Positions 1 to 21,109 of a stretch of DNA of 64,000 bases are shown in pieces; positions within the stretch are counted from its first letter, which is position 1, and the number at the start of each line of letters is the position of its first letter. Source of the stretch: Bacteroidales bacterium. GTDB lineage: Bacteria > Bacteroidota > Bacteroidia > Bacteroidales > WCHB1-69. Both the position numbers and the translations under genes were made by a program. The stretch is from NCBI GenBank assembly GCA_045116675.1, contig JBGUMF010000073.1:9-64008 (forward strand), read 5' to 3'. The notes under the pieces were generated by a model. It was given only the letters and a program-made list of their open reading frames with translations, ran no database searches and was not told the DNA's origin.

Positions 1-120
1 TTCCAATTTCATTGCTAATTCCAGTGTCCAATACATAACTCTTACGAATAAAATTTATATGATTTTTTAGGGGTGCAAAGGTATAATAATTATAATAAAA
101 CACCTCAAAAAATTAAAATT

Positions 121-660
121 TTATTTCATTGATACATAATATGTTTCGGAAATCTCGTATTTTACATGGAAAAATCTTGCCAAAATAAAGAAATAATCGG
201 ACAGTCGATTCAGCACTTTTTGCACCTTGTTGTAAGCCTCTTCGGAGGCCATCAGGGCGACCACATTCCGTTCGGCGCGGCGGCACACCGTGCGGCACAC
301 GTGCGCGGTCGCGATCACCTCGTTGCCCTGGGGCAGGATGAAGCCCTTCCACGGCGGAAGCTGAGCCGAAAGGGTGTCGATTTCCCGCTCGATGTCCGAC
401 ACGAACGCATCCAGATCCACCTGTTTCCAATATTTCTCCCACAACGGGAGCGGCGTGGCCAGCATTCCACCCACGACAAACAATTTTTGCTGGATTTCTC
501 CCAAAAAAGGGACAGGTTCTTTCGAAATCATCACCCCGATGAACGCATTCAGTTCATCCACGGTACCGTATGCATCCAGTAGGTCGCAATTCTTATAAAC
601 TCTTGATCCATCGGACAATGAAGTCATTCCGGCATCCCCTGTTTTCGTATAAATCTTCAT
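121..660 (-). CDS. ATP:cob(I)alamin adenosyltransferase, PduO type
   Basis: The N-terminus MKIYTKTGDAGMTSL is the hallmark of PduO-type adenosyltransferases. The 179 aa length and ...CRRAER... helix-bundle motifs fit. Family assigned from memory. Confidence 0.85.
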   Translation of the reverse strand: MKIYTKTGDAGMTSLSDGSRVYKNCDLLDAYGTVDELNAFIGVMISKEPVPFLGEIQQKLFVVGGMLATPLPLWEKYWKQVDLDAFVSDIEREIDTLSAQLPPWKGFILPQGNEVIATAHVCRTVCRRAERNVVALMASEEAYNKVQKVLNRLSDYFFILARFFHVKYEISETYYVSMK

Positions 661-695
661 AAAAAAATTTTTTTTGCAAATGTATAAAAAAAATG

Positions 696-703
696 TATCT
701 TTG
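696..703 (+). promoter_or_regulatory. Bacteroidetes-type -7 box (TATCTTTG) upstream of tRNA-Lys
   Basis: Exact match to the TAnnTTTG -7 consensus of the Bacteroides primary sigma factor, 29 nt upstream of the tRNA 5' end. Confidence 0.5.
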
Positions 704-731
704 CCGCCGCAAAAGCAAAGAGAAAAAACAA

Positions 732-804
732 GTCTCCTTAGCTCAGTTGGTAGAGCAATTGACTCTTAATCAATGGGTCCAGGGTTCGAGTCCCTGAGGG
801 GACA
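732..804 (+). tRNA. tRNA-Lys (anticodon CTT)
   Basis: Cloverleaf folded by hand. Acceptor gtctcct/aggggac, D-arm agctcagttggtagagc, anticodon stem attga/tcaat with loop cTCTTaa (CUU), T-arm caggg-ttcgagt-ccctg. No encoded CCA. Confidence 0.9.
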
Positions 805-807
805 CTG

Positions 808-847
808 AAAGCACTCCAAACCTAATTCGTTCGGGGTGCTTTTTTTA
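808..847 (+). terminator. Intrinsic terminator after tRNA-Lys
   Basis: Stem gcactcc (811-817) pairs with ggggtgc (833-839), with one G-U pair, and is followed by a T7 run. Confidence 0.6.
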
Positions 848-874
848 TCCTTTTTGGTTCAAAAAAACTCGACA

Positions 875-3796
875 ATGAAAAAGATCATCCTGTTCCTGCT
901 TGTCCTCGCCACCGTACACGCGTGGGCGCAATCGCAATATGTGAACCCCTTTGTGGGTACCGACGGCCACGGGCACACCTTCCCCGGCGCCATCGTCCCT
1001 TTCGGGGCCGTGCAGGCCAGCCCCGACACGCGCCTCGACGGCTGGGACGGCTGCTCCGGCTACCACTACAGCGACAGCCGCATCTATGGTTTCTCGCACA
1101 CGCACCTCAGCGGCACCGGCTGCAGTGACTATGGGGACATCCTCATCATGCCGTTTTCGGGAAAGCCCTCCATACACAACGGCGAGTATTCCGCCACCTT
1201 CAGCCATAAGAACGAGCAGGCCTCGCCCGGCTACTACCGCGTGCAGCTGGACAACGGCGTGCTGGTGGAGCTCACCGCCGGCAAATATGTGGCCGTACAC
1301 CGCTACACCTTCCCCAAGAAAGGAGCCAAGGGCATCGTCATCGACCTCACGCACCGCGACAAGGTGTTGGCCTCCGGCATCACCCATCAGGGAAACGAGT
1401 TCTTCGGCTTCCGCCGCTCCGAGGCCTGGAATCCCGACCAGTACTGCGCCTTCTCCATCCTGCCCTCCACCCCCGTGCAGCGGGTCGAATATTTCTACAA
1501 CGACCAGCCCGCGGGCGACCATGACGTGCGCGGCGAGAACTGCAAGGCCATCCTCTACTTCGCCGACAACGTGCGCACCGTGACCCTCAACGTGGCCATC
1601 TCCGCCGTGGACATCCAAGGGGCCATGAACAACCAGAAAGAGCTTGCGAACCTCACCTTCGACCAGGTGCGGAAAAACGCCGTTTCCGCGTGGGACCGCG
1701 AACTGGGCAAAATCAAGGTGGAATCCGCCAACGAAGAGTATCTTAAAACATTTTATACAGCCTTATATCATTGTTTCACATCCCCTTACCTCTACTCGGA
1801 TTTGGACGGCCGCTACCGCGGCATGGACGGCGAAATCCATAACGGCGACGGCAAACACCAGATGTACACGGTGTTCTCGCTGTGGGACACCTACCGCGCC
1901 CTGCACCCGCTGCTCAACATCATCGACCGGAAGCGCACGGAGGATTTCCTCTACACGTTCATGCAGCAATACCGCCAAGGCGGGATGCTGCCCGTGTGGG
2001 AACTCTCGGCCCACGAGACCTGGTGCATGATCGGCTACCACTCCGTGCCCGTTATCCTGGACGCCTACGTCAAGGGCATCCACCCCTACGATGAAACGGA
2101 GATGCTGCAGGCGATGGTCCACAGCGCCACCCTGAACAAGCTCGGGCGGCCTGAGTATGCGAAACACGGCTACATCCCCGGCGACGCCGACAATGAATCC
2201 GTATCGAAGACCTTGGAGTACGCCTACGACGACTGGTGCATCGCGCAGTTCGCCACAAAGATACGCAATTTAGAGGTGGCCAACGAGTTCGACCGTCGCG
2301 CCGTATCCTACCGCAACATCCTGGACCCCAACGGGTTCATGCACGGCAAGATCAACGGCGGCTTCGTCGCCCCGTTCGACCCCACGGAGGTCAACAACTT
2401 CTACACCGAGGCCAACAGCTGGCAGTACTCCACTTACGTGCCGCACGACCTGTCGGGCTACATCTACGAAATGGGCGGCAGAGAGCGCACCGAGCAGTTC
2501 CTGGACCGTCTTTTCCACTCCGACTCTAAGATGACCGGCCGAGACCAGTCGGACATCACGGGCATCATCGGGCAGTACGCGCACGGCAACGAGCCCAGCC
2601 ACCACGCCGCCTACCTCTACAACGAGGTGCTGCGCTACGACAAGACCTGCGACATGGTCCGCAAGATCATGACGGAGCTCTACACCTCCAAGCCTGACGG
2701 CCTCTGCGGCAACGAAGACTGCGGCCAGATGTCGGCGTGGTACGTGTTCAGCGCCCTCGGATTCTACCCCGTCTGCCCGGGCAGCAACAGCTACTCGTTA
2801 GGTTACCCGCTCTTCGACCGCGCGACCATCACATTGGAAAATGGTAAAAGTCTGGTTATACGGAGGGAAGGCAAAGGCGACAACGTAGCCAACATCACCA
2901 TCAACGGCAAATCAATCATCAATCCGTACATGCATTTCGGATTCGACGACATCAAAAACGGCGGCGAGATTGTCTTCACCATGGGTTCCATGCCCACCAA
3001 CCGTTTCATGGGTGCCCGCGACGGCTACGCAACCAAAATCCCCGCCCCGCCCGTGCCCTACTTCTCCACCGACAAACGGAGTTTCAGCGAGCCCACGCGG
3101 GTGGAAATCCTAAACTACCGTCCCAACAACCTCCAGCTGAAAAGCTATGATGTGGACACGTGGGCCGAGACCGACATCTATTATACGACCGACGGCAGCA
3201 CACCCGCGCCCACGCACGGCACACGTTACGACAAGCCCATCAACGTGGACAAGGAGATGACCCTCAAGGCGATAGCCTACCATAAAGACCTCGGGGCCAG
3301 CCCCGTAGCCGAGGCCCATTATGTCTTCTTCAACAAAGACAAGACGCTCACCTACCTCACCCAGCCCAACCCGCAGTACTTCGCCGGCGGGAACGACGGC
3401 CTCATCGACGGCATCCGCGGCAAGGCCAACTGGCGTGTGGGCAGCTGGCAGGGCATCCAGGGCGACTTCGAGGCCGTCATCGACCTGCAGAAGAGCAAAG
3501 AGGTCAACCGCGTGACCGTCAGCTGTCTGGAAGACGTGCGGGCCTGGATTTTCTTCCCCTCCAAAGTGGAAATCTACATTTCGGACGATGGCGAGCACTA
3601 CACGCTGTTCGGTCGCACCGACGGCATCGGCTCCGAGAAATCGGAAGATGCCAAGCTGCACGAGTTTGTCGTAAACGGAAGCGGGAAAGGTCGTTACCTG
3701 AAAGTGAAGGCCACCAACTACGGCAAGCTGCCCGACTGGCACATCAGCGCGGGCCATCAGTCGTGGATGTTCTTGGATGAAATCACGGTGGACTGA
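875..3796 (+). CDS. GH92 alpha-mannosidase with C-terminal CHB_HEX_C-like and F5/8 type C (discoidin) domains
   Basis: Signal peptide MKKIILFLLVLATVHAWAQ, then the GH92 signature NPFVGTDGHGHTFPGA..PFG.VQ.SPDT. The C-terminus has DIYYTTDGSTP (chitobiase-C-like) and a discoidin-like segment. Start moved to the ATG at 875, since the ORF track begins at 836. Confidence 0.9.
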   Translation: MKKIILFLLVLATVHAWAQSQYVNPFVGTDGHGHTFPGAIVPFGAVQASPDTRLDGWDGCSGYHYSDSRIYGFSHTHLSGTGCSDYGDILIMPFSGKPSIHNGEYSATFSHKNEQASPGYYRVQLDNGVLVELTAGKYVAVHRYTFPKKGAKGIVIDLTHRDKVLASGITHQGNEFFGFRRSEAWNPDQYCAFSILPSTPVQRVEYFYNDQPAGDHDVRGENCKAILYFADNVRTVTLNVAISAVDIQGAMNNQKELANLTFDQVRKNAVSAWDRELGKIKVESANEEYLKTFYTALYHCFTSPYLYSDLDGRYRGMDGEIHNGDGKHQMYTVFSLWDTYRALHPLLNIIDRKRTEDFLYTFMQQYRQGGMLPVWELSAHETWCMIGYHSVPVILDAYVKGIHPYDETEMLQAMVHSATLNKLGRPEYAKHGYIPGDADNESVSKTLEYAYDDWCIAQFATKIRNLEVANEFDRRAVSYRNILDPNGFMHGKINGGFVAPFDPTEVNNFYTEANSWQYSTYVPHDLSGYIYEMGGRERTEQFLDRLFHSDSKMTGRDQSDITGIIGQYAHGNEPSHHAAYLYNEVLRYDKTCDMVRKIMTELYTSKPDGLCGNEDCGQMSAWYVFSALGFYPVCPGSNSYSLGYPLFDRATITLENGKSLVIRREGKGDNVANITINGKSIINPYMHFGFDDIKNGGEIVFTMGSMPTNRFMGARDGYATKIPAPPVPYFSTDKRSFSEPTRVEILNYRPNNLQLKSYDVDTWAETDIYYTTDGSTPAPTHGTRYDKPINVDKEMTLKAIAYHKDLGASPVAEAHYVFFNKDKTLTYLTQPNPQYFAGGNDGLIDGIRGKANWRVGSWQGIQGDFEAVIDLQKSKEVNRVTVSCLEDVRAWIFFPSKVEIYISDDGEHYTLFGRTDGIGSEKSEDAKLHEFVVNGSGKGRYLKVKATNYGKLPDWHISAGHQSWMFLDEITVD

Positions 3797-3801
3797 CAGA
3801 T

Positions 3802-3975
3802 GGCACGCGCGTGCCCGCCGCGAAATCACCGGTGTTGGAGACACCGCATCTTATTAACCCCAGATGAGCGCAGCGTAATCCGGGGACGTGGCGCGCCCCA
3901 TGTACCCCCTCGCGGCGCGGCAGGCGCGTGCCACGGAGATGTGGTGTGCCCGCCGCGCAAGGTACGCGCGGGCAT
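3802..3975 (+). repeat. GC-rich structured repeat, copy A (fills the gap between convergent GH92 and ORF6N genes)
   Basis: The core ggtgtTggagacacc...ttattaacCCCAGAtgagcgcagcgtaaTCCGGGG...cgcggcgcggcaggcgcgtgccacg...gcccgccgcg is shared with copies at 5129-5292 and 6294-6430. The outer ends are inverted-repeat-like (atggcacgcgcgtgcc / ggtacgcgcgggcat). Confidence 0.8.
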
Positions 3976-3981
3976 CTGGCA

Positions 3982-4599
3982 TCAGTCGCCCAATCGCTGT
4001 TTCAGCCTCGCAATCTCCTCCCTCAGTTCCCGGACCTCGGCATCATTCTCCCGCTTCACGGAATGTCGGAACTTGAACATCGCGAGGTTCAACTCGAAAG
4101 AGGTCTCCCTGCTTTGCCCGGGCAGGAGATCCGTAAGAAGGTCATCGATGAGCTGGCCGCCCCGATGCAGCAACCGGTTCTGCTCCTGCTTGCCCGCCTC
4201 GCTCTCCTCCACCTGCGGTAGCGCCACCATCACCCGCGACAGCTCCTTCAGCTTCGCGTAGGCCTCCACAATCGCGATGGTCGTCTCCACCGCCTTCGGA
4301 CTCTTCAGGATTGTGGCCAGCATATAGAGGCCCTTCTCGGTGAAAGCCTTGGGTGGATATTTTGAATGTTGTCCTCTTCCTAATTTCTTTAAGGTCGAAA
4401 ATTTCGACCTTAAAGATGATAGTTCTTCTTCCATCAACTCCCACACATACCCTTCTGGAAATTTTTCTGGGTTGTTACTGACGGCCTCATTAATGCGTTT
4501 GGTCTCTACGCCATACAACTCCGCCACATCGGCATCCAATATCACCTGCTGGTCCCGCAGGGTGATAATCTTGCTTTCTACATCAATAATATTAGTCAT
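3982..4599 (-). CDS. ORF6N (KilA-N-like) domain DNA-binding protein
   Basis: The N-terminus IITLRDQQVILDADVAELYGVETKRINEAVSNNPEKFPEGYVWEL is typical of the ORF6N domain. The C-terminus is predicted coiled-coil (EVRELREEIARLKQRL). Confidence 0.8.
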   Translation of the reverse strand: MTNIIDVESKIITLRDQQVILDADVAELYGVETKRINEAVSNNPEKFPEGYVWELMEEELSSLRSKFSTLKKLGRGQHSKYPPKAFTEKGLYMLATILKSPKAVETTIAIVEAYAKLKELSRVMVALPQVEESEAGKQEQNRLLHRGGQLIDDLLTDLLPGQSRETSFELNLAMFKFRHSVKRENDAEVRELREEIARLKQRLGD

Positions 4600-4635
4600 T
4601 GCTTTAAGTGTTAAATTTAAATTAATTTATCACCG

Positions 4636-4643
4636 CAAAGATA
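4636..4643 (-). promoter_or_regulatory. -7 box (TATCTTTG on minus strand) for the ORF6N gene
   Basis: The reverse complement of caaagata matches TAnnTTTG, 37 nt upstream of the ATG at 4599. Confidence 0.5.
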
Positions 4644-4716
4644 CATCCAAAATCCGCATTTGTCAATGGAATTATGAAAATTTTTCAACCCTGATTATCA
4701 AATAAATATAAATTAA

Positions 4717-4749
4717 TTTGAATAAATCAATATTTAATAGTTAAATTTG
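4717..4749 (+). promoter_or_regulatory. Candidate orphan promoter (-33 TTTG, -7 TAAATTTG) pointing into the hairpin array
   Basis: TTTG at 4717-4720 and TAAATTTG at 4742-4749 are separated by 21 nt. No credible protein-coding ORF lies downstream before 5621. Confidence 0.4.
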
Positions 4750-4860
4750 CAACACAACTTCGGAAATAAATCGCTTCATACTGCAAATTTCAGGTTATTG
4801 GAATAAGATCCCATCACTGCAAACATAACTGCGTGTGCGTTATGCTTGCATCGCCAATAT

Positions 4861-5125
4861 GAATCCCCTCACGGGGATTGAAATTTGCCGGGCATCCGTT
4901 TTTGCTACAGGTATGCATCCCCTACGGGGATTATGGAGCACGGCAAGTTGCCATACAACATAGAATCCCGTCAAGGATTCCATCTCTGTGGCACATTGCA
5001 TCCCAAAGGTTTCCACAGAACCCCGTAGGGGGTCCATATCTGTAACGATGCGTCCCCGATGGTCTCCGCAGAACCCCGTCAGGGGTTCCAGCTCGGTAGC
5101 CAGGGATGACAAACCCAGGGAAAAC
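4861..5125. repeat. Degenerate tandem array of short GC-stem hairpins (REP/BIME-like)
   Basis: There are at least 7 units of the form (g/c)a(a/t)CCCC-nnnn-GGGG(a/t)t. Examples are gaatCCCCtcacGGGGattg 4861, gcatCCCCtacGGGGatta 4915, gaatCCCgtcaaGGattc 4963, gaaCCCCgtagGGGGtcc 5018 and gaaCCCCgtcaGGGGttcc 5071. The last two roughly 52-nt super-units (4998-5049 and 5050-5101) are clearly homologous. Confidence 0.75.
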
Positions 5126-5128
5126 AGG

Positions 5129-5292
5129 AGCGTGCCACAGCGAAAACGCTGGTGTCGAAGACACCACATCTCATTAACCCCAGATGAGCGCAGCGTAATC
5201 TGGGGGAGATAATGCGCGCCCACGGCACCCGCGCGGCGCGGCAGGCGCGGGCCACGAAGATGTGTGCGGGCCGCCGCGAAACGACAACGCGA
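5129..5292 (+). repeat. GC-rich structured repeat, copy B
   Basis: ggtgtcgaagacacc...cattaacCCCAGAtgagcgcagcgtaaTCTGGGG...cgcggcgcggcaggcgcgggccacgaag...ggccgccgcgaaa. Same orientation as copies A and C. Confidence 0.8.
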
Positions 5293-5464
5293 AATAAGGG
5301 AGAAATCTTTTGCCAAAACCATAACAGACCATGCAAGTCAACAAGGGCATCAGAATTGCATTTTTCTCCGAAATACGACGAACAAATCATCAGACACCCA
5401 AACAATACAACAATAATAATTTACAATTTATTGATTTTATGTAAAATAAAATTATCATACAACA

Positions 5465-5496
5465 CTTGACAAAGGACACTCTTTGCATTATATTTG
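5465..5496 (+). promoter_or_regulatory. Candidate promoter (-33 cTTG, -7 TATATTTG) for the toxin-antitoxin pair
   Basis: TATATTTG at 5489-5496 matches TAnnTTTG, with TTG at 5466-5468. Confidence 0.45.
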
Positions 5497-5620
5497 CAAA
5501 TGAACCTAAAAGAAAGAAAACATGTATCGAAAATCTAATGTGAACAAATCTCCTATAGTGTATTTTGTGTATTTTTGCAACCGCAACACGGAGGTGTCGT
5601 CTTATCCCTTAGACAAAAGC

Positions 5621-5857
5621 ATGGGTACCTATAATATAATATTGAACGATGAACTGGTCGAGAAGGCCCGTCCGGCTTTCCCCGACGAGAATGCTTTGCA
5701 ATGTTGGTTGCAGGAACAAGTTGTCGATGCCCTGGAACGCCTTGTCAAAAAAAATTCCGAAGCCAATCAATGTGCTATGGTGAAAGAAAGCATGACAAGG
5801 GCTTTTGAAGAATTGCATTCCGGTCGTGTCAAAAAAAACGCCAGAGAACTCTTTTAA
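5621..5857 (+). CDS. Small protein, putative antitoxin of the downstream RelE/ParE-like toxin
   Basis: 78 aa (MGTYNIILNDELVEKARPAF...). It ends 14 nt before the toxin ATG and has a small acidic/helical composition. No family recognised. The start is uncertain, since the ORF track begins at 5522. Confidence 0.5.
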   Translation: MGTYNIILNDELVEKARPAFPDENALQCWLQEQVVDALERLVKKNSEANQCAMVKESMTRAFEELHSGRVKKNARELF

Positions 5858-5871
5858 CTGACGCACAGACG

Positions 5872-6216
5872 ATGGAAGTGGAGTTTGATTATTTGCCCGA
5901 ATTTGAAAGGCGGGCAAAGGCTTTGGCGAAGAAATACCAATCATTCACAGCAGATTATCAAACATTTCTGGATGAATTGGAGAACAATCCATTCGGCGGG
6001 GAATCGCTTGGACACAACACGTACAAATACCGAATGGCCATCACCTCGAAAGGCAGAGGCAAACGTGGCGGTGCAAGAGTGATCACATACAACTTGACCC
6101 AGACGGAGGATTCTTTAAGGATCACATTAATGTCTATATACGACAAGTCTGAAATTAGCAATGTTTCAACAGCATACCTTCGCCAATTAGTTCAATCTAT
6201 TGAGGAAAATCATTGA
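5872..6216 (+). CDS. RelE/ParE-superfamily toxin (Gp49/HigB-like, GGARVI motif)
   Basis: 114 aa. The pattern FL.EL..NP..G..LG...YK.R.AI.SKG.GKRGGARVI is typical of Bacteroidetes RelE/ParE-family toxins. Confidence 0.75.
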   Translation: MEVEFDYLPEFERRAKALAKKYQSFTADYQTFLDELENNPFGGESLGHNTYKYRMAITSKGRGKRGGARVITYNLTQTEDSLRITLMSIYDKSEISNVSTAYLRQLVQSIEENH

Positions 6217-6293
6217 GAACGGCCCAATGTTGCCCAGCCCGACCGATTTAGGGATTCCTATTTGTTTCACGATAACACTTGGACTAAGACTGC

Positions 6294-6430
6294 ACCGGTG
6301 TCGGAGACACCATATTTTATTAACCCCGGATGAGCGCAGCGTAATCCGGGGACGTGGCGCACCCCTTGTACCCCCTCGCGGCGCGGCAGGCGCGTGCCAC
6401 GAAGCTATGGATTTGCCGCCGCGCAACGCG
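6294..6430 (+). repeat. GC-rich structured repeat, copy C
   Basis: ggtgtcggagacacc...ttattaacCCCGGAtgagcgcagcgtaaTCCGGGG...cgcggcgcggcaggcgcgtgccacgaag...gccgccgcgcaa. Very close to copy A by eye over the core. Confidence 0.8.
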
Positions 6431-6991
6431 AGCCTCCCTCATCCATCTCCCCTTCACCCGCAATTCACCACCCCTCAATCCACATGACAATTAGCTTTCC
6501 CCCACACTTGCCATTCCCTGCTGCTGCCCATTGTTCGGCGACAAAGAATCTGTTTTTGCTTTCCAACACCCCGTTTGCTTCGAAACGGAATTGCAAAATT
6601 AACAATTCAAAAAACACAATTGTTAAATTATTTTTGCAAAAAGCTGATTATCAACCAGAAAAAATTTTCACAAAGCCCTTGACAAAACCTTCCGTCGGAG
6701 TTACTTTTGACAACAAAAACAATTAACCGAAATATGAACCCAACCACACACGATTCCAGCAACAGATCCATCCTCGATGACCACTTCATCTAAGCAATCA
6801 GCCAGGCCTTCGCAATGCCCACTAAAGAGTTGTCAGTTGTCAATTATCAGTTAGGAGTTGAAACCTGAAACCTTTAACTTTTTAACTTCTTCACTCCTTA
6901 GTTTTTCAACTCCCCCACTACCCCGCCCTTCGGGCACCCCTTCTCAAGAAGGGGAATGACGCTCCCCCTTAACTTCTTAACTCAATTCACT

Positions 6992-7567
6992 ATGGAACAC
7001 CTTGACCAAATCCAAAATCTCATCTACAACATCCGTGGACAACGCGTGATGATCGACTATGACCTTGCTCGTATCTATCAAGTGGAAACAGGGCAACTGA
7101 AGCGTCAAGTTCGGCGCAATATTGAACGTTTTGAAGGTGATGATTTCATGTTTGAAATCACACACGAAGAACTCTTGAGATGCCAAATTGGCACCTCAAG
7201 CTGGGGAGGCAGTCGTTATGGAGCTTTCGCCTTTACAGAATTAGGCGTAGCAATGCTTAGCGGTGTCCTTAATTCAAAAGTAGCTGTTGATGCAAACCGA
7301 AAAATAATGCGTGCCTTTGTCTGCTATCGACATATGGCGGAGATGCCCCTCGCTGCCACCTATATCGAATTGCGAAAACAGATCGAGGATCTCAGAGCCG
7401 AAGTAAATGATATCCTGGCGGACCAGAACGAGATCAACGAGCACACCCGTGCACAGCTGGATGCCATCAGCACGGTTTTGTCGGAATTACAGGCCTCAGA
7501 ACCCACGTCCCGATGCCGGCCCATCGGCTATATTCGTCCTACAGAGGAGGAAGGTAATGAACCATGA
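6992..7567 (+). CDS. ORF6N (KilA-N-like) domain protein
   Basis: IYNIRGQRVMIDYDLARIYQVETGQLKRQVRRNIERFEGDDFMFEIT is paralogous to the 3982-4599 product. Start chosen at MEHLDQ; the ORF track begins at 6956. Confidence 0.75.
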   Translation: MEHLDQIQNLIYNIRGQRVMIDYDLARIYQVETGQLKRQVRRNIERFEGDDFMFEITHEELLRCQIGTSSWGGSRYGAFAFTELGVAMLSGVLNSKVAVDANRKIMRAFVCYRHMAEMPLAATYIELRKQIEDLRAEVNDILADQNEINEHTRAQLDAISTVLSELQASEPTSRCRPIGYIRPTEEEGNEP

Positions 7568-7595
7568 CAGCGTTCCCTCTTAGTTTCTTAACAGC

Positions 7596-8426
7596 ATGAA
7601 AAAAAATATCGACACAACAAACGAAGGCGAGATCATCCTCTACCAACCCGACAACAATGTACGGTTGGAGGTGCGGATGCATGAGGAAACAGTATGGTTA
7701 AACAGACAGCAAATGGCAATTCTTTTTACTAGAGATATAAAGACTATCGGCAAACATATCAATAATGCTCTACAAGAAGAATTGTCCGATTTTCCAGTTG
7801 TCGCAAAATTTGCGACAACTGCCAGAGATGGCAAAACGTATCAAGTAGAGCACTATAACCTTGATATGATACTCTCTGTCGGATATCGTGTAAAATCCAA
7901 ACGTGGTGTCGAATTTCGAAAATGGGCAAACTCTGTACTCAAAGAGTATCTCTTGCGCGGATATGCTATCAACCAGCGATTTGAACGGCTGGAGCAGCGG
8001 GTTGCCAAAACCGAAGAGCAAATAGGTTTCTTTGTGAGCACTGCATTGCCTCCCGTGCAGGGTGTGTTCTACGACGGACAGATATTCGATGCCTACACCT
8101 TCGTGGCGGACCTGGTTCGCTCGGCACGGGAGCGGATTATCCTCATCGACAACTACGTGGACGACTCCGTCTTGAAGATGCTCACCAAACGGAACGAGGA
8201 CGTCAGCGCGACCATTATCACACGGAAGATTTCGGACGCGCTGGCCGTGGACGTCGCACGCCACAACCAACAATATCCGCCAGTGGACATCCAAACCTCC
8301 GATCGCTTCCACGACCGCTTCCTCATCATCGACGACACCGTCTATCACCTCGGTGCCTCGATGAAAGATTTGGGGAAGAGATTGTTTGCATTTTCAAAAT
8401 TGAATATACCGGCACATAACCTGTGA
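7596..8426 (+). CDS. RhuM-family N-terminal domain fused to a PLD-like (HxRx4D) C-terminal domain
   Basis: The N-terminus IILYQPDNNVRLEVRMHEETVWLNRQQMAILF...YNLDMILSVGYRVKSKRGVEFRKWANSVLKEYLLRGY is the RhuM signature. The C-terminus has RIILIDNYVDDSVLKML....HDRFLIIDDTVYHLGASMKDLGK. Confidence 0.75.
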   Translation: MKKNIDTTNEGEIILYQPDNNVRLEVRMHEETVWLNRQQMAILFTRDIKTIGKHINNALQEELSDFPVVAKFATTARDGKTYQVEHYNLDMILSVGYRVKSKRGVEFRKWANSVLKEYLLRGYAINQRFERLEQRVAKTEEQIGFFVSTALPPVQGVFYDGQIFDAYTFVADLVRSARERIILIDNYVDDSVLKMLTKRNEDVSATIITRKISDALAVDVARHNQQYPPVDIQTSDRFHDRFLIIDDTVYHLGASMKDLGKRLFAFSKLNIPAHNL

Positions 8427-8451
8427 TCAGTGACCAGTGATTAGTAATCAG
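8424..8451. repeat. Heptamer micro-repeat (TGATCAG TGACCAG TGATTAG TAATCAG) between convergent genes
   Basis: Four consecutive related heptamers start at the stop codon of the RhuM-like gene. Confidence 0.7.
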
Positions 8452-8469
8452 AATAAAAGACACATGCAC

Positions 8470-10734
8470 TTATAGCACCACCTCGCCGGTCTCGGCATCC
8501 AACAGCAAGGTCTGGAAGGGGTTCAGGACCAAAGAGACTACTTTGCCATTGCGCAAGCGGATGGTGCGCTTGCCCCCATCTTTCGTGTGAATCATCACCA
8601 GTCCCGAGCCCGCCACCACGGCATCCGAGTCCTCATTATAAATATGGCACCCGGCATCCCGGAACAGGTGCTGCCACAAGCGGCAGTCCACCATCGGGAG
8701 GCCCACAAAACAGTCCGTAAAACTATCGTGCCTCTTGCGGGCCGCAGCCATCGAACCGTCCGGATAATAGGCCAACGGCACCGCCGCATCATCCTTGACA
8801 CGGAAAAAGACTTGCTGCCAGGACATCCCGCCCCGCTTATTACTCATGAAAATCGTCTTGCCCACTTCGGCAATCCGCTCTCCCGGCTGAAACAGGGTAT
8901 CCCAAGCGTTCACAAACCGCATGTCGGGAATCGAATCCGCATAAAACGCATCCACCTCCATGCCTGCGCACTCCCGCACATGCCGCACATCCAAGGTGCG
9001 TCCGTCGTTGAACCCCGGGGCCGTCAGCCACACCAGCGTGCGGCCGTCACGGGCCACCTCGCGACGAATCCACTGCCGAAGCTCCGGCTCAATATGGAAA
9101 CAATTCACGAAAACCACGACCTTGAATGTTGCCAACGGCATCTGTTTCAAATCCGACAAATAACAGGTGGCCACGGAGGCGCCGGACTTGAATGCCTCGA
9201 TCGTCACCACGTCCACAGATGTCTGGTCGGTAATCGGGTCATCCGTGTCGCGGCTGGCGGTATGGTAAAACACTTTCGTGTCATACACCATCAGCACATC
9301 CGCCGGATTATCCTGATTATGATGAAAAAAACGTTCCTCCACCTGCTTCATGCGGGCAATTTCCGCCATATAGTCGGGATCATCCCACCAGCCCGTCGTC
9401 ATAATGGGCCCGAAATCATAATACCACATCCCGCCGCCTCGCAGGAAGGGATGGAGCACGAACTTGCGCAGGATCTGGATGCTTTCGGCCTTGGGATAAC
9501 GCTGCAGGCCGCCCAGCATGATGAAACCGTAATGGCTGGGCTGGTCCATCTCGTCGAGCCACAGTTTCCCATGCAGGTTCACCGACTCGACCAGCCCGCG
9601 CGACACTCCGGGCCCGCCGGGCAGACGGCTGTTCTTGTTGTACGCCTGCGGGGCGGAGAGGAAATCCACATACGGGGAGTTGAGCACATCCTCCTCGCGC
9701 AAATGGCCGCCCGCCGCCTGCCGCCCGAACATCGAGAGATAATATCCATAGAAACAACCCACCACTACTGGACGCGGCCACGACTCCTTCACAATCTTGG
9801 CGAAATAGTTGATGCTATTGGTAACAGCCTGATGCTGACAATCATAATAATCGATAATAGCCTGCTCGCGTTGCGGGTCGCGAAAGATGCCCGCAGAGGT
9901 CTGATGCCGCTCCATGCCCGGCACCGAGGCGGTGGCCAGCGTGACCTCCGAATTGTTCCAAGCCTTCCGAAGAGCCTTGTCGTTATGATACTTCTCCGTC
10001 AGATATGCCCGGAAATAGCGCTGCATCGGCTCCGACACGTCGGGGTCGTGCCGCACGAAGGCCCAATAATGGTTTTCCCCGTTCACGCCCATCGTCAGCT
10101 GAAGGCCCATCACGTGTCTTCCTTCCGGCGTGTCGGCAAAGTCACGGCAGAACTGCCGCACCATCGCCCCCATCTCCTCCAGCCAACGCCGGGAGGCATA
10201 GCTGCATCGCGCAACGGTGTCCAAATCTTTCCACAGGTAGTTCTGATAGGCCGGGCGGTAGGGTTCCTCGGCCAGGCCAGCATCGGCAAAGCGGGTACAC
10301 TCTTCCGGATGCTGGCGAAGCCATCGGAAGGTGGGGTTGCAATGCAAACGGAACATCACCGCCGCCTGCGGACAATGGGCCAACACCCCGCGCACCTGGC
10401 GCACCGCCTCCCCAATGTCCAACGAGCCATCTTCCGTTATCATCTCTTCAAACCATAAATCCAGCTGGTACAACGTAAAGCCTGCATCGGCAAACAAGGC
10501 GATATTGTGCGACGGCCCCGCCTCATATGAGCGGTTACCCGTTGGACGGTCGGTGAGCGCGTAAAACTGGGGTACCACGGGCACATCATTGATATAGAGC
10601 GCCGGACGACCCTTGTAAGGCTTCACCTCCGCCCGCTCCACGCGATAGTCGGCATCCGTCTGCGCCAACAACGGACATGTCCACCCGAACATTCCTATGC
10701 TCAGGCAAATCCACAACATTCGAATCTGTTTCAT
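8470..10734 (-). CDS. Secreted putative glycoside hydrolase (GH42-like TIM barrel plus GATase1-like middle domain)
   Basis: Signal peptide MKQIRMLWICLSIGMFGWTCPLLAQ. The overall architecture and the KVVVFVNCFH...LVWLTAPGF segment recall GH42 beta-galactosidase-type proteins. The family is not firmly recognised. Confidence 0.4.
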   Translation of the reverse strand: MKQIRMLWICLSIGMFGWTCPLLAQTDADYRVERAEVKPYKGRPALYINDVPVVPQFYALTDRPTGNRSYEAGPSHNIALFADAGFTLYQLDLWFEEMITEDGSLDIGEAVRQVRGVLAHCPQAAVMFRLHCNPTFRWLRQHPEECTRFADAGLAEEPYRPAYQNYLWKDLDTVARCSYASRRWLEEMGAMVRQFCRDFADTPEGRHVMGLQLTMGVNGENHYWAFVRHDPDVSEPMQRYFRAYLTEKYHNDKALRKAWNNSEVTLATASVPGMERHQTSAGIFRDPQREQAIIDYYDCQHQAVTNSINYFAKIVKESWPRPVVVGCFYGYYLSMFGRQAAGGHLREEDVLNSPYVDFLSAPQAYNKNSRLPGGPGVSRGLVESVNLHGKLWLDEMDQPSHYGFIMLGGLQRYPKAESIQILRKFVLHPFLRGGGMWYYDFGPIMTTGWWDDPDYMAEIARMKQVEERFFHHNQDNPADVLMVYDTKVFYHTASRDTDDPITDQTSVDVVTIEAFKSGASVATCYLSDLKQMPLATFKVVVFVNCFHIEPELRQWIRREVARDGRTLVWLTAPGFNDGRTLDVRHVRECAGMEVDAFYADSIPDMRFVNAWDTLFQPGERIAEVGKTIFMSNKRGGMSWQQVFFRVKDDAAVPLAYYPDGSMAAARKRHDSFTDCFVGLPMVDCRLWQHLFRDAGCHIYNEDSDAVVAGSGLVMIHTKDGGKRTIRLRNGKVVSLVLNPFQTLLLDAETGEVVL

Positions 10735-14010: not shown

Positions 14011-14940
14011 TTAAAGATTTGTTACACAAAAATCGGGATTTTCTAAAATTTTTTTCGCAAAGGTCGTGTTAGCCAGATGTCCGGGGCGTTCGGCGATGAT
14101 TTCAGCCTTGAGCGGAACCCCCAGCAAATAGAGATCACCCATGAGGTCGAGCAGCTTGTGGCGGGCCGGTTCGTTCTCATGCCGCAAGGTCACGTTGTTG
14201 AGCACATGGTTGGGCATCACCGTGATGTCCTCCTTGTGGAAAAACTGTCCCAGCTGCTTGAGCACCTGCGGATCGGGCACCTGGTCCACGAAAACGATGG
14301 CATTGTCGAGGTCGCCGCCACGCACCAGATTGTTCTGAATCAAAAACTGCAACTCATTCAGGAAGACGAATGTGCGGCAGTTGTAAACCTCGGGGTAGAA
14401 ATCCTCAACATTGTCCAGCACAGCTTCCTGCTCGGCCAGCACCTTGGTGCCATAGTCCACCTTCACCGTCATCTTGAAATGGTCGGCGGGGCGGATGGTA
14501 AGCTTCACCTGCTGTTCGGGTATGGAGAGCGTTATCTCTTTTTTCAGTGTTCCGCAGCGGCGCGGCGCGTCCAGCTCGCGGAGGCCCGTCTCCTTGAGCA
14601 TCTCCACATACACGCGCGAGCTGCCGTCGAGGATGGGCGTCTCGGGCCCGTGCGTGCGCACGCATACGTTGTCGATGCCAAGACCGGCCAATGCGGCCAT
14701 AAGATGCTCAATAGTATGCACTTGGGCATCTCCCTCCTTGATGGAGGTACCACGGGAGGTGTCAAACACATTCTGCGGGATAGCCCGTACCACGGGCTCA
14801 CCCGGCAGGTCGGCCCGCACGAAGCGGATGCCATAGTCAGCGGGGGCCGGCTCGAAGGTGACCGTCACCTGCTGGCCTGTGTGCAATCCCCTGCCCGATA
14901 CGGAAATCGGGGCGTTCACTGTTGTCTGTCTGTTCATCAA
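14011..14940 (-). CDS. lpxC: UDP-3-O-acyl-N-acetylglucosamine deacetylase (stand-alone, no FabZ domain)
   Basis: GRGLHTGQ...IRF.R.DL...TIEHLMAAL.G.GIDN...E.PILDGSS motifs. The 309 aa length equals stand-alone LpxC. Confidence 0.9.
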   Translation of the reverse strand: MMNRQTTVNAPISVSGRGLHTGQQVTVTFEPAPADYGIRFVRADLPGEPVVRAIPQNVFDTSRGTSIKEGDAQVHTIEHLMAALAGLGIDNVCVRTHGPETPILDGSSRVYVEMLKETGLRELDAPRRCGTLKKEITLSIPEQQVKLTIRPADHFKMTVKVDYGTKVLAEQEAVLDNVEDFYPEVYNCRTFVFLNELQFLIQNNLVRGGDLDNAIVFVDQVPDPQVLKQLGQFFHKEDITVMPNHVLNNVTLRHENEPARHKLLDLMGDLYLLGVPLKAEIIAERPGHLANTTFAKKILENPDFCVTNL

Positions 14941-21026: not shown

Positions 21027-21035
21027 TTGCTTACG

Positions 21036-21109
21036 TGGTCCCTCTTGGGGTCGAACCAAGGACCTACTGATTATGAGTCAGTTGCTCTAACCAACTGCGC
21101 TAAGGGACC
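21036..21109 (-). tRNA. tRNA with CAT anticodon (elongator Met, or Ile2 if lysidinylated)
   Basis: The reverse complement ggtccct-tagcgcagttggttagagc-aactga-cTCATAa-tcagt...cttgg-ttcgacc-ccaag-agggacc-a folds as a cloverleaf. The anticodon stem lacks the three G-C pairs of initiator tRNA. Confidence 0.85.

Follow-up and report, generated by a model that had tools for sequence, protein, structure and literature searches.

The segment at 3797–8469 of the window (the whole 64,000-nt stretch of Bacteroidales DNA analyzed here) is a strain-variable accessory islet that probably owes its modularity to homologous recombination between the repeats it carries. In one species-level rumen Bacteroidales clade, it would have taken the place of the 16 nt that separate two convergent core genes. 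The assembled relatives show that adjacent repeat copies recombine: relatives are short of exactly one module together with one repeat, and a single chimeric copy marks the junction. Gene conversion also moves segments between copies.

Islet Borders and Gene Content

The stop codons of the two convergent core genes are the exact borders of the islet (Table 1). On the left lies a GH92 gene, whose orthologues were used to judge synteny between relatives. The 754-aa product of the right flank has no Pfam match itself, and the name GH42-like is a reasonable one because several homologues carry PF02449 (GH42). As the preliminary description stated, the islet is AT-richer than its flanks: its GC content is 47.5% (45.4% once the repeats are excluded) versus 58%–60% in the flanking genes, the repeats themselves reaching 62%–68%. 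The reported lack of a tRNA boundary and of mobility genes also holds. There is no tRNA at the islet boundary (a tRNA-Lys lies at 732–805, upstream of GH92), and no integrase or transposase was found in the islet, in the tested window ORFs of suitable size, or within ±10 kb in relatives.

Table 1. Islet features and flanking core genes, in window coordinates
Feature	Position	Strand	Basis
GH92 alpha-mannosidase (left core flank)	875..3796	+	Pfam Glyco_hydro_92, E 1e-161
Repeat copy A	3797..3966	+	Covariance model R1, 141 bits; repeat search
Module 1: ORF6N-domain protein	3982..4599	-	Pfam ORF6N, E 3e-31
Bacteroidetes-type promoter-like site	4717..4749	+	TTTG-N21-TAAATTTG, motif scan
Hairpin-unit array, CCCC-N3-4-GGGG, ~53 nt per unit	4802..5087	.	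Sequence and repeat search
Repeat copy B	5117..5287	+	Covariance model R1, 152 bits
Module 2: putative antitoxin ORF	5522..5857	+	ORF list
Module 2: HigB-2-like toxin, RelE/ParE superfamily	5872..6216	+	PDB HigB-2 chains, E 5e-9
Repeat copy C	6268..6432	+	Covariance model R1, 141 bits; alignments
Module 3: second ORF6N-domain protein	6956..7567	+	Pfam ORF6N, E 1e-29
Module 3: RhuM-family protein (RhuM N-terminal domain)	7596..8426	+	Pfam Virulence_RhuM, E 2e-23
GH42-like protein, 754 aa (right core flank)	8470..10734	-	Homologues with PF02449

The gene content is as first described, namely an ORF6N gene, a toxin–antitoxin (TA) pair, and an ORF6N gene with rhuM. These three accessory modules are unrelated to one another and each has its own promoter; a motif scan found TAnnTTTG for each separately, with −7 motifs at 4636–4643 (minus strand) for the module 1 ORF6N gene, 5489–5496 for the putative antitoxin, and 6629–6636 and 6702–6709 for module 3. 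The module 1 ORF6N, module 3 ORF6N, and RhuM proteins all match the candidate defense family PDC-S05 (PADLOC; E 1e-73, 4e-45, and 5e-123, respectively), and rhuM matches are also contained in Bacteroides plasmids. The two ORF6N proteins share only 31% identity (BLASTP), and the modules, by their sequences, are not duplicates of each other. The earlier assignment of the TA pair to the RelE/ParE type stands at the level of the superfamily, in which HigB-2 structures place the toxin, while the match to Pfam RelE is weak (E 0.0016). The putative antitoxin ORF has no Pfam or NCBIfam match and is called as the same 111-aa gene in relatives L020, L022, and L023.

Module 1 also includes the hairpin-unit array, which has no relation to repeats A, B, and C; the covariance model with filters off gave no match to it. 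The array is missing from L001 and L035, where about one unit is left. The promoter-like site is directed at the array and copy B, and an TAATTTTG motif is retained at the corresponding position in L001.

A Structured Repeat Ahead of Each Module

Three same-orientation repeats between the modules had been reported, and the covariance model places them at 3796–3966, 5117–5287, and 6268–6432. They are ~140–170 nt long, one direct copy standing ahead of each module, and are 79%–90% identical over P1–P3, sharing identical runs as long as ~45 nt. A 32-nt core occurs three times versus none expected from shuffles, and at thresholds as loose as E ≤ 1 the covariance model found no fourth copy in the 64 kb. 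Copy A falls within the 3′ UTR of GH92 and copy C within that of the TA operon, and copy B lies downstream of the promoter-like site. In copy A, a P0 palindrome (3802–3815) is followed by P1 (3830–3846), the invariant P2 hairpin (3858–3885), and P3, which ends at ~3960; copy C lacks P0, its homology to A and B beginning at P1.

The element runs from the P1 hairpin with its GRA triloop through a conserved AU-rich linker to P2, a variable joiner, and the long helix P3. P2, with the sequence CCCCRGAU-GAGCGCAGCGUA-AUCYGGGG, is a ~30-nt hairpin that hardly varies. The three helices covary across the family. For 20 sequences, 96.5% of cells are paired versus 86.8% in shuffles (slid controls, 29%–59%), with double changes at 13 pairs versus 6.1 expected (0/500 shuffles); for 32 distinct sequences, 97.4% are paired versus 81.6%, and double-change cells number 113. 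The plus strand is identified as the one that would fold because one P2 pair is G-U in 11/29 sequences. G-T wobble is tolerated in DNA hairpins too, so this pair would fit either RNA or single-stranded DNA. We lean toward the element acting as RNA rather than single-stranded DNA; with less confidence than for the recombination, we suggest that selection maintains the plus-strand fold, most likely for a role within a transcript. Several family members have no obvious upstream source of plus-strand transcription, which counts against a role in a transcript.

In the genomes searched, the family is low-copy, confined to rumen Bacteroidales, and uncatalogued in Rfam, no family of which matches the element. 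Of 185,579 species genomes, only four, all of them rumen MAGs, contain its exact core, which is absent from all Bacteroides and Parabacteroides species genomes searched; it also occurs in 11 metagenome contigs. The covariance model found no element in the remaining 59 kb of the window, none in empty-site relatives, and none in 48 viral loci, and ~190 kb of unselected sequence, part of it redundant, contained no copy; the element is thus not the scattered, generic REP-like repeat that the preliminary description had weighed as an alternative. Copies are found in both orientations and are often clustered, some as inverted pairs (in L008, 2935–3075(+)/3085–3216(−), duplicated at 4542–4826) or head-to-head (L002, L012, and L015). 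They are strictly intergenic. Small defense genes often, not always, adjoin them, including PDC-S22 KilA-N, AbiLi, NERD, and DUF3990/3791. The suggestion that the repeat marks the borders of variable genes did not hold up elsewhere: at two other loci (L015/L012 and L008/L013), the borders of variable genes lie 140–155 nt away from the element or within the remnant of a gene. Elements occur with no cassette in L012, L013, and L016, and the family is also found, cassette-free, between housekeeping genes.

An Allelic Series among Relatives

All relatives compared are metagenome assemblies or MAGs. In sister lineages the GH92 and GH42-like genes are adjacent without the islet, the arrangement that the preliminary description had asked about: L017, L026–L034, and L038/L039 read GH92 TAA-TGTTCCCCGCAGTCGG-CTA GH42-like, a 16-nt spacer, and this pattern is found in >20 contigs from many samples. 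Islet content, far from being identical in all relatives, differs between them, and the proposed modular gain and loss is borne out: close relatives have or lack individual modules, and a single chimeric repeat remains at each change. L020–L023 lack the whole of module 1, the 1,321 missing nt equaling the A-to-B spacing, and have a single copy whose left part is A-type and whose right part is B-type. L001 and L035–L037 lack the TA module and have a single copy in which a B-type left part is joined to a C-type right part. Each module-loss state is found repeatedly, in at least three to four independent assemblies. In L035 the second ORF6N gene (6956..7567) is deleted. No intermediates at the site (a lone repeat, or modules without repeats) were found among the relatives.

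A comparison of the two independent deletion junctions available puts the A/B crossover within the invariant core and the B/C crossover ~80 nt further 3′, in the 3′ strand of P3. Conversion tracts are also seen, copy C of L020 holding a B-type middle segment and copy A of L001 a C-type P3 segment. Because the crossovers lie at differing places and conversion tracts occur, general homologous recombination is indicated, not the work of a fixed-site recombinase. The preliminary description had allowed for simple homologous deletion between the direct repeats, and this is the reading that the data favor; they do not support its idea of a dedicated boundary function of the attC or BIME type, and neither does the lack of attC boxes, of terminal inverted repeats, and of a nearby recombinase.

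Three further points bear on the history of the islet. Insertion of circular module-plus-repeat units would yield identical chimeras, which speaks against reading a direction of deletion from them. Any fixed crossover point might since have been masked by gene conversion. The origin of three copies beside three unrelated modules is left unexplained by homologous recombination between them.

Alternative Explanations

The element could be the recombination site of a cassette system, analogous in function to integron attC or to the intergenic repeats of Bacteroidales rAID-1, and fold as single-stranded DNA. The islet would then be equivalent to a CALIN, an integrase-free cluster of such sites, and the recombinase or HUH enzyme that moves gene(s) plus one element as a unit would be encoded at another place in the genome. 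Each module does have one same-orientation element, and a single unit is what distinguishes relatives; a HigB-2-type TA pair is among the modules, which have their own promoters and no relation to one another, as chromosomal integrons would lead one to expect; the fold is kept with covariation while most of the sequence drifts, and a 30-nt hairpin is invariant, as a protein recognition site would be; and the family recurs next to small defense genes in other genomes. We nevertheless regard this reading as doubtful, given the unlike junctions and conversion tracts, the absence of R″/R′ boxes, and ends that do not form one long hairpin. Furthermore, no recombinase was found in the tested ORFs of the 64-kb window or within ±10 kb in any relative or other locus, module 1 is inverted, and the loci described above show variable genes that end away from the element and elements that are cassette-free. 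A selfish, non-autonomous mobile repeat (of the MITE, REPIN, or PATE kind) is a similarly unlikely identity for the element; it would have inserted into the intergenic gaps of a pre-existing islet, its fold serving its own transposition as single-stranded DNA and modularity being a by-product. A multi-copy family in both orientations, with clusters and inverted pairs, strictly intergenic even in housekeeping gaps, and with hairpins that covary like the ends of IS200/IS605-type elements, would fit. However, there are no terminal inverted repeats, no target duplication, and no transposase was seen; copy number is low, with none in the ~190 kb of unselected sequence; the close-relative pairs L006/L002, L012/L015, and L008/L013 all retain the element, with no presence/absence polymorphism of a single element seen; and no islet state was found that had modules without elements.

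A cis-regulatory leader (riboswitch or attenuator) of the downstream gene is a highly improbable reading. The orientation would suit it, as 9/12 distinct copies share the direction of the next gene and lie 150–330 nt upstream, and the 5′ strand of P3 can pair alternatively in one subfamily. Yet the downstream genes are unrelated in function (PglZ response regulator, PFOR, aldose epimerase, KilA-N, NERD, AbiLi, and the TA pair), copy A faces a convergent gene, and in many loci a TAnnTTTG promoter motif intervenes, which puts the element outside the 5′ UTR of the downstream gene. Least probable of all is that the module losses are artefacts of short-read assemblers collapsing repeats, as might be feared with metagenome assemblies and repeats that are identical over runs of as much as ~45 nt. 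The states recur across independent samples and assemblers (L020–L023; L001 and L035–L037), the chimeric copies bear their own lineage-specific substitutions, and the L035 lineage, with its unrelated deletion and a broken rhuM, is consistent with real divergence.

Comparison with Known Systems

Integron attC arrays (among them integrase-less CALINs and sedentary chromosomal integrons, for example the Vibrio cholerae repeats) likewise have same-orientation structured repeats of ~100–150 nt, one per small cassette, with self-promoted TA pairs among the cassettes, structure conserved above sequence, and relatives that differ by whole cassettes. HigB-2 is known from V. cholerae. Unlike attC, which is one end-to-end hairpin with extrahelical bases, the islet element consists of several successive hairpins, lacks R″/R′ core boxes, and has a 30-nt block almost invariant across genera; there is no IntI, crossovers are not at a fixed point, and one module is inverted. 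Escherichia coli REP/BIME, ERIC, Neisseria dRS3/NIME, and Correia elements undergo homologous recombination that gives rise to deletions, rearrangements, and mosaic gene content. Like the islet element they are intergenic, foldable, clustered, found in both orientations, and often in 3′ UTRs. The islet element differs in its far lower copy number, greater length, multi-helix fold, strong covariation, invariant hairpin, and phylum; it has no sequence similarity to these elements, and no RAYT-type gene was seen.

The rAID-1 (recombinase-associated acquired interbacterial defense) clusters of gut Bacteroidales have an adjacent XerD-family tyrosine recombinase, co-oriented genes of <41% GC, T6SS immunity genes, and repetitive intergenic sequences in an arrangement that their authors call reminiscent of integrons (bioRxiv 10.1101/471110; PMC12247911). 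Bacterial order and short, low-GC accessory or defense genes separated by repetitive intergenic sequences are common to both, but those hallmarks (the XerD-family recombinase, co-oriented <41% GC genes, and T6SS immunity) are absent from the islet, a distinction drawn from the description of rAID-1. Bacteroides also has multicopy sRNA families, FopS/GibS and a six-member family beside transposases or invertases (PMC11697453); some of these sRNAs have links to mobile genes and are targets of an RRM protein. These sRNAs and the islet element are alike paralogous non-coding elements of Bacteroidales; FopS, however, is a short single-stranded seed plus terminator hairpin and is in Rfam, whereas the islet element has no terminator and another architecture.

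A 30-nt hairpin that hardly varies, copies that cluster, and small defense genes that recur as neighbors all suggest a sequence-specific partner and perhaps a mobility function, which counts against a purely general recombination. It is plausible that the element serves as a protein-bound boundary, processing, or stabilizing element between transcription units. As for the islet itself, we infer RecA-type general homologous recombination or unequal crossing-over between 79%–90% identical direct repeats, without fixed-site catalysis. The repeats would be portable homology, a substrate for homologous recombination, and the islet would therefore be modular.

Allelic States of the Islet

Alignment of the locus with its relatives, the comparison proposed in the preliminary description, yields a series of four allelic states: the GH92 and GH42-like genes are adjacent without the islet in sister lineages, and the modules vary one at a time in others. 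The islet is thus accessory, its site being unoccupied in sister lineages. At the empty site (L017, L026-L034, and L038/L039; more than 20 contigs, many samples), the two stop codons lie 16 nt apart across the spacer TGTTCCCCGCAGTCGG, with no repeat and no islet. These lineages have GH92 proteins 86%–91% identical to that of the window and flanking DNA 84%–88% identical. The window carries the fullest state, in the order A, module 1, B, module 2, C, module 3, where A, B, and C are the repeat copies, module 1 is the minus-strand ORF6N gene with a hairpin array, module 2 the toxin–antitoxin (TA) pair, and module 3 the plus-strand ORF6N gene with rhuM. In L020-L023 (GH92 97% identical), module 1 is absent and one repeat follows GH92; the missing stretch of 1,321 nt equals the A-to-B spacing. 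In L001 and L035-L037 (95% identical), module 1 is kept, the TA module is absent, and one repeat lies between modules 1 and 3. Each state is seen in several independent assemblies, which makes a collapse of the repeats during assembly unlikely.

The lineage without the TA module has also lost the plus-strand ORF6N gene, and its rhuM is broken, indicating that module 3 is decaying there. In L035, this deletion (14515-14660, compared with 6823-7628 of the window) is not bounded by repeats and leaves rhuM split into ORFs of 87 and 190 aa. A more distant relative, L024, has no GH42-like gene, and its GH92 abuts an M14 peptidase gene (7076-7079). The genes upstream of GH92 (1-9000) are an efflux pump, a DUF1016/YhcG nuclease-like gene, and MatE in the L020 lineage, and CstA, TyrRS, and NAD synthase, in that order among others, in the L026 and L035 lineages.

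Gene Content and Composition

The islet measures 4,673 nt from stop codon to stop codon of its flanking genes. It has a GC content of 47.5% (45.4% without the repeats), with 40%–53% in the individual genes, compared with 58%–60% in the flanking genes and 62%–68% in the repeats.

Features of the islet and its flanks, in window coordinates
Feature	Position	Strand	Remarks
GH92	875-3796	+	Left flank, converges on GH42-like gene
Repeat A	3797-3966	+	Same orientation as B and C
ORF6N gene, module 1	3982-4599	-	PADLOC PDC-S05, E 1e-73
Repeat B	5117-5287	+	
Small ORF, 111 aa	5522-5857	+	Putative antitoxin of module 2, 14 nt upstream of toxin
Toxin, module 2	5872-6216	+	HigB-2 PDB chains, E 5e-9, residues 26-110
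Repeat C	6268-6432	+	
Second ORF6N gene, module 3	6956-7567	+	PADLOC PDC-S05, E 4e-45
RhuM-family gene, module 3	7596-8426	+	PADLOC PDC-S05, E 5e-123
GH42-like, 754 aa	8470-10734	-	Right flank, converges on GH92

Both ORF6N proteins and RhuM match PDC-S05, a candidate system in PADLOC, and are to that extent candidate defence genes. The two ORF6N proteins share 31% identity, too little for the modules to be recent duplicates. The TA pair had been described as RelE/ParE-type, and this label stands: the toxin scores under the Pfam RelE threshold, but solved HigB-2 structures match it at E 5e-9. The adjoining partner ORF matched no family in profile searches. With a RelE/HigB-homologous toxin and a small neighboring gene, module 2 is a type II TA system of the RelE/ParE superfamily (HigB-2 type).

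A motif scan gives each module its own Bacteroidetes -7 motif, TAnnTTTG, at 4643(-), 5489(+), and 6629/6702(+). Ten of the 42 such motifs on both strands of the 64-kb window fall within 3700-8520 (4.8 kb), a concentration that fits several independent promoters within a short AT-rich stretch. A further promoter-like site (TTTG-N21-TAAATTTG, 4717-4749(+)) is directed into the hairpin array and copy B. The array itself (4802-5087) sits between this site and repeat B and consists of about five units of about 53 nt each, with stems AUCCCC-N3-4-GGGGAU or AACCCC-GUNN-GGGGUU; the corresponding position in L001 and L035 holds about one unit only. Tandem Repeats Finder did not report the array, and the covariance model ruled it out as a degenerate relative of the repeat element. 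Two tRNA genes, tRNA-Lys(CTT) at 732-805 just upstream of GH92 and tRNA-Met(CAT) at 21035-21109 beside an M20 peptidase gene, both lie away from the borders of the islet, and no integrase adjoins either.

A Lineage-Restricted Family of Folded Repeats

The repeats are genuine, and all three fall in a low-copy family of folded elements that is restricted in lineage. The preliminary description was right in all essentials to see three same-orientation structured repeats separating the modules. Over helices P1–P3 the copies are 79%–90% identical, and a 32-nt core occurs three times in the window and never in shuffled sequence; the covariance model finds no further copy in the 64-kb window, even at E ≤ 1. 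A short fragment resembling the 3' end of the element (GGCA[C/G]GCGCGUGCC...CGCGAAA) precedes A (3802-3825) and B (5125-5146) and looks like the remnant of an adjacent tandem copy; copy C has no such fragment upstream.

In a scan of one genome for each of 185,579 species, a 28-nt core was found only in four rumen Bacteroidales metagenome-assembled genomes, with at most two exact-core copies per species representative, and was absent from Bacteroides and Parabacteroides. A metagenome scan placed it in 11 contigs, and the viral contigs scanned gave no match. Profile and covariance-model searches of the element loci added more diverged copies, in both orientations and often clustered or as inverted pairs, and the covariance model found no element in ~190 kb of unselected sequence.

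Twenty distinct copies were aligned to derive the structure. In P1, a 6-bp hairpin capped by a GRA triloop, all six pairs covary (for example, GGUGUC/GACACC, GGCAUC/GAUGCC, GACCUC/GAGGUC, CGUGCU/AGCACG). A conserved linker, AUYUYAnUAA, leads to P2 (CCCCRGAU-GAGCGCAGCGUA-AUCYGGGG), which is nearly invariant; diverged copies have a GNRA-capped hairpin in its place. P2 and P3 are linked by a variable joiner of about 25 nt, and in P3 four pairs covary (CGCGGCG.../...CGCCGCG versus CGCGGUG.../...CACCGCG). Standard pairs fill 96.5% of cells, compared with 86.8% in column shuffles, and 13 pairs show double changes, compared with 6.1 expected (0/500 shuffles); sliding the 3' partners reduces pairing to 29%–59%. 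For 32 distinct copies aligned by the model, and hence biased towards it, the figures are 97.4% compared with 81.6%, with 113 double-change cells; across both alignments, 13–15 pairs show double changes. At one P2 pair, 11 of 29 sequences have G-U, which on the opposite strand would read as a C-A mismatch; in the present orientation, it is therefore the plus strand that folds. The element therefore has what a structured RNA in the generic sense displays, a conserved fold backed by compensatory changes on one strand.

A second subfamily (L002/L003/L004/L006-L009/L012/L013/L015) has an extra conserved tail, CAGCCGAUGC-A7-9-CAUGCGGUAGCC, about 10–60 nt 3' of P3. Its GAUG could pair with the P1–P2 linker (CAUCU) or locally with a downstream CAU, and both a tail helix and the linker–tail pairing are predicted for this subfamily; the subfamily of the window has no such tail.

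Searches of the window and 12 loci against Rfam 15, whose families include FopS, ROOL, GOLLD, HEARO, and self-cleaving ribozymes, gave only tRNAs at the gathering score and nothing on the repeats at E ≤ 5. P1 and P2 were also compared by eye with the hammerhead, K-turn/box C/D, group II domain V, T-loop, and intrinsic terminator motifs. The CAGAUGAG stretch misfits the hammerhead core and has no GAAA after it. A terminator scan flagged P1 and the linker as terminator-like, a reading dropped since the U-tract is weak and P2 and P3 covary downstream as well. The GA/GUA internal loop of P2 might be read as bulged-G-like. FopS sRNAs (PMC11697453), which the element does not resemble, were ruled out.

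Genomic Neighborhoods of the Element

Elements are strictly intergenic, and their neighbors are a mixture of housekeeping genes (PPDK, ResB, PFOR, acyl-ACP thioesterase, PglZ response regulator, aldose epimerase) and small accessory or defence genes (KilA-N [PDC-S22], AbiLi-type ATPase, NERD, DUF3990/DUF3791, a CoiA-like protein); in L012, L013, and L016, the element has no accessory gene. A TAnnTTTG motif commonly separates an element from the gene that follows, and the element is therefore no leader of that gene; a riboswitch was likewise rejected, given these intervening promoters and the unrelated genes downstream. Two pairs of otherwise collinear contigs differ beside an element: NERD and a 230-aa gene are present in L015 (5503-7141) and absent from L012 (5275-5387), and KilA-N/PDC-S22 and a 115-aa gene are present in L008 (5308-6466) and absent from L013 (1290-1304). 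The variable borders lie 140–155 nt downstream of the element or within a gene remnant, not at the element; L013 retains the promoter and first codons of the deleted KilA-N gene. Some diverged copies form tail-to-tail inverted pairs of about 280 nt (L008 2902-3179 and 4509-4786; L013 480-757). The L008 pair is itself present as a direct duplication, with a GHMP-kinase gene and a tRNA between the two copies, forming another repeat-bounded segment, here with housekeeping genes.

No integrase or transposase lies near any copy, and no Phage_integrase-type or IntI recombinase was found in the islet, the tested ORFs of the 64-kb window, or ±10 kb of relatives. None of 48 viral loci with relatives of ORF6N, RhuM, or HigB has the element, so such cassette genes are widespread without it. 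When plasmids and phages were searched by blastn with the islet, the matches were confined to coding sequence of rhuM and ORF6N. A genome collection searched for exact copies of four window proteins gave no match and thus does not include the genome from which the window comes.

Recombination between Copies

Modules have been lost singly, leaving chimeric repeats whose crossover points vary. When the copies of each relative were painted against A, B, and C, the single copy after GH92 in L020 matched A across the GH92 flank, P1, and the linker and matched B from the 3' strand of P2 on; its crossover thus lies within the invariant core. In L001, the single copy is B-type as far as inner P3, the middle segment included, and C-type from the 3' strand of P3 on, placing this crossover about 80 nt further 3'. 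Conversion tracts are also seen: the C-equivalent copy of L020 has a B-type middle segment, and the A-equivalent copy of L001 a C-type P3 segment. Crossover points that vary, together with mosaics left by conversion, typify general homologous recombination of diverged direct repeats, and a fixed-site recombinase would leave a different trace; from these two junctions we infer that such recombination produced the rearrangements, the repeats serving as portable homology. In the most economical history, the three-module state would be ancestral for the clade, followed by two independent repeat-to-repeat deletions. The reverse reaction, re-insertion of excised circles, is a possible alternative to these deletions. 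It is also possible that a fixed recombination site was later blurred by gene conversion, given that conversion is demonstrably active and the junctions number only two.

Comparison with Known Systems

Integron attC sites carry R'' (RYYYAAC) and R' (GTTRRRY) boxes at their ends, fold into a single imperfect hairpin that pairs the ends and has extrahelical bases, and recombine at a fixed position; CALINs have an IntI tyrosine recombinase in the genome, not necessarily adjacent. Neither strand of A, B, or C has R''/R' boxes, the consensus fold is three to four successive local helices (P0–P3) whose ends do not pair with each other, and the crossovers (two junctions) do not fall at one position. 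An integron-like mechanism is thus not borne out; the preliminary description had likened the islet to attC-delimited integron cassettes or BIME-bounded islets in function, not in sequence. REP/BIME/REPIN sequences are palindromic units of 20–40 nt in tens to hundreds of copies per genome with an associated RAYT gene, whereas the element is a unit of 140–170 nt with several helices, and its three copies in 64 kb are all in the islet. Its behavior as a recombination substrate is closer to that of REP/BIME, ERIC, and Neisseria dRS3/NIME, but it is longer, multi-helix, low-copy, and from a different phylum. MITEs have terminal inverted repeats and a target-site duplication; no terminal inverted repeat was found between the first and last 40 nt of the element (best local score 4–8), and no duplication at the borders of element or islet.

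The rAID-1 arrays of gut Bacteroidales (10.1101/471110; PMC12247911) are headed by a XerD-family tyrosine recombinase and consist of short genes for orphan immunity proteins, all in one orientation and below 41% GC, with a specific conserved intergenic motif. In contrast, the islet and its neighbors have no Phage_integrase-type match, module 1 lies on the opposite strand, gene GC is 40%–53%, and the proteins are ORF6N, RhuM, and HigB-2-like. The islet functionally resembles integrase-less attC arrays and rAID-1, yet it shows none of the testable features that define them: it has no core boxes, no single hairpin per site, no crossover at a fixed point, no recombinase next to it, no shared orientation of its genes, and no immunity genes.

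Possible Roles of the Element

The element represents a new family of structured intergenic repeats that renders the islet modular, and as such belongs to a known kind, repeats acting as a recombination substrate. Somewhat less firmly, its fold may act in RNA, since A and C lie in the 3' UTRs of co-oriented genes, B lies past a promoter-like site, and the G-U pair marks that strand; plus-strand transcription could plausibly come from GH92 for A, from the TA genes for C, and from the site at 4717-4749 for B. The element may instead act as single-stranded DNA, either a site used by an unlinked recombinase or a mobile element of the non-autonomous kind, a possibility sustained by the invariance of the hairpin, the clustering of copies, and the recurrence of defence genes nearby. 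There is even a small but real chance that rumen Bacteroidales capture or exchange small defence and TA genes as cassettes through an undescribed system, with the element as its cis-acting site. The invariant P2 hairpin of a folded DNA or RNA strand would then be recognized by an unlinked recombinase, HUH, or RNA-guided enzyme, the system would parallel integrons and rAID in function while being unrelated in sequence and architecture, and the variable breakpoints would be secondary gene conversion.

The series of empty site, all three modules, loss of module 1, and loss of module 2 is a clean natural one in an uncultured rumen lineage, and it displays a tiny defence/TA islet remodeled module by module. 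With it comes a well-supported folded element outside Rfam that recurs beside small defence genes. If the repeats are merely portable homology, this is a tidy yet ordinary case of repeat-mediated genome plasticity; should the element prove to be a recognized recombination site or an RNA linked to defence, it would offer a new way into the question of how Bacteroidales build micro-islands without linked mobility genes.
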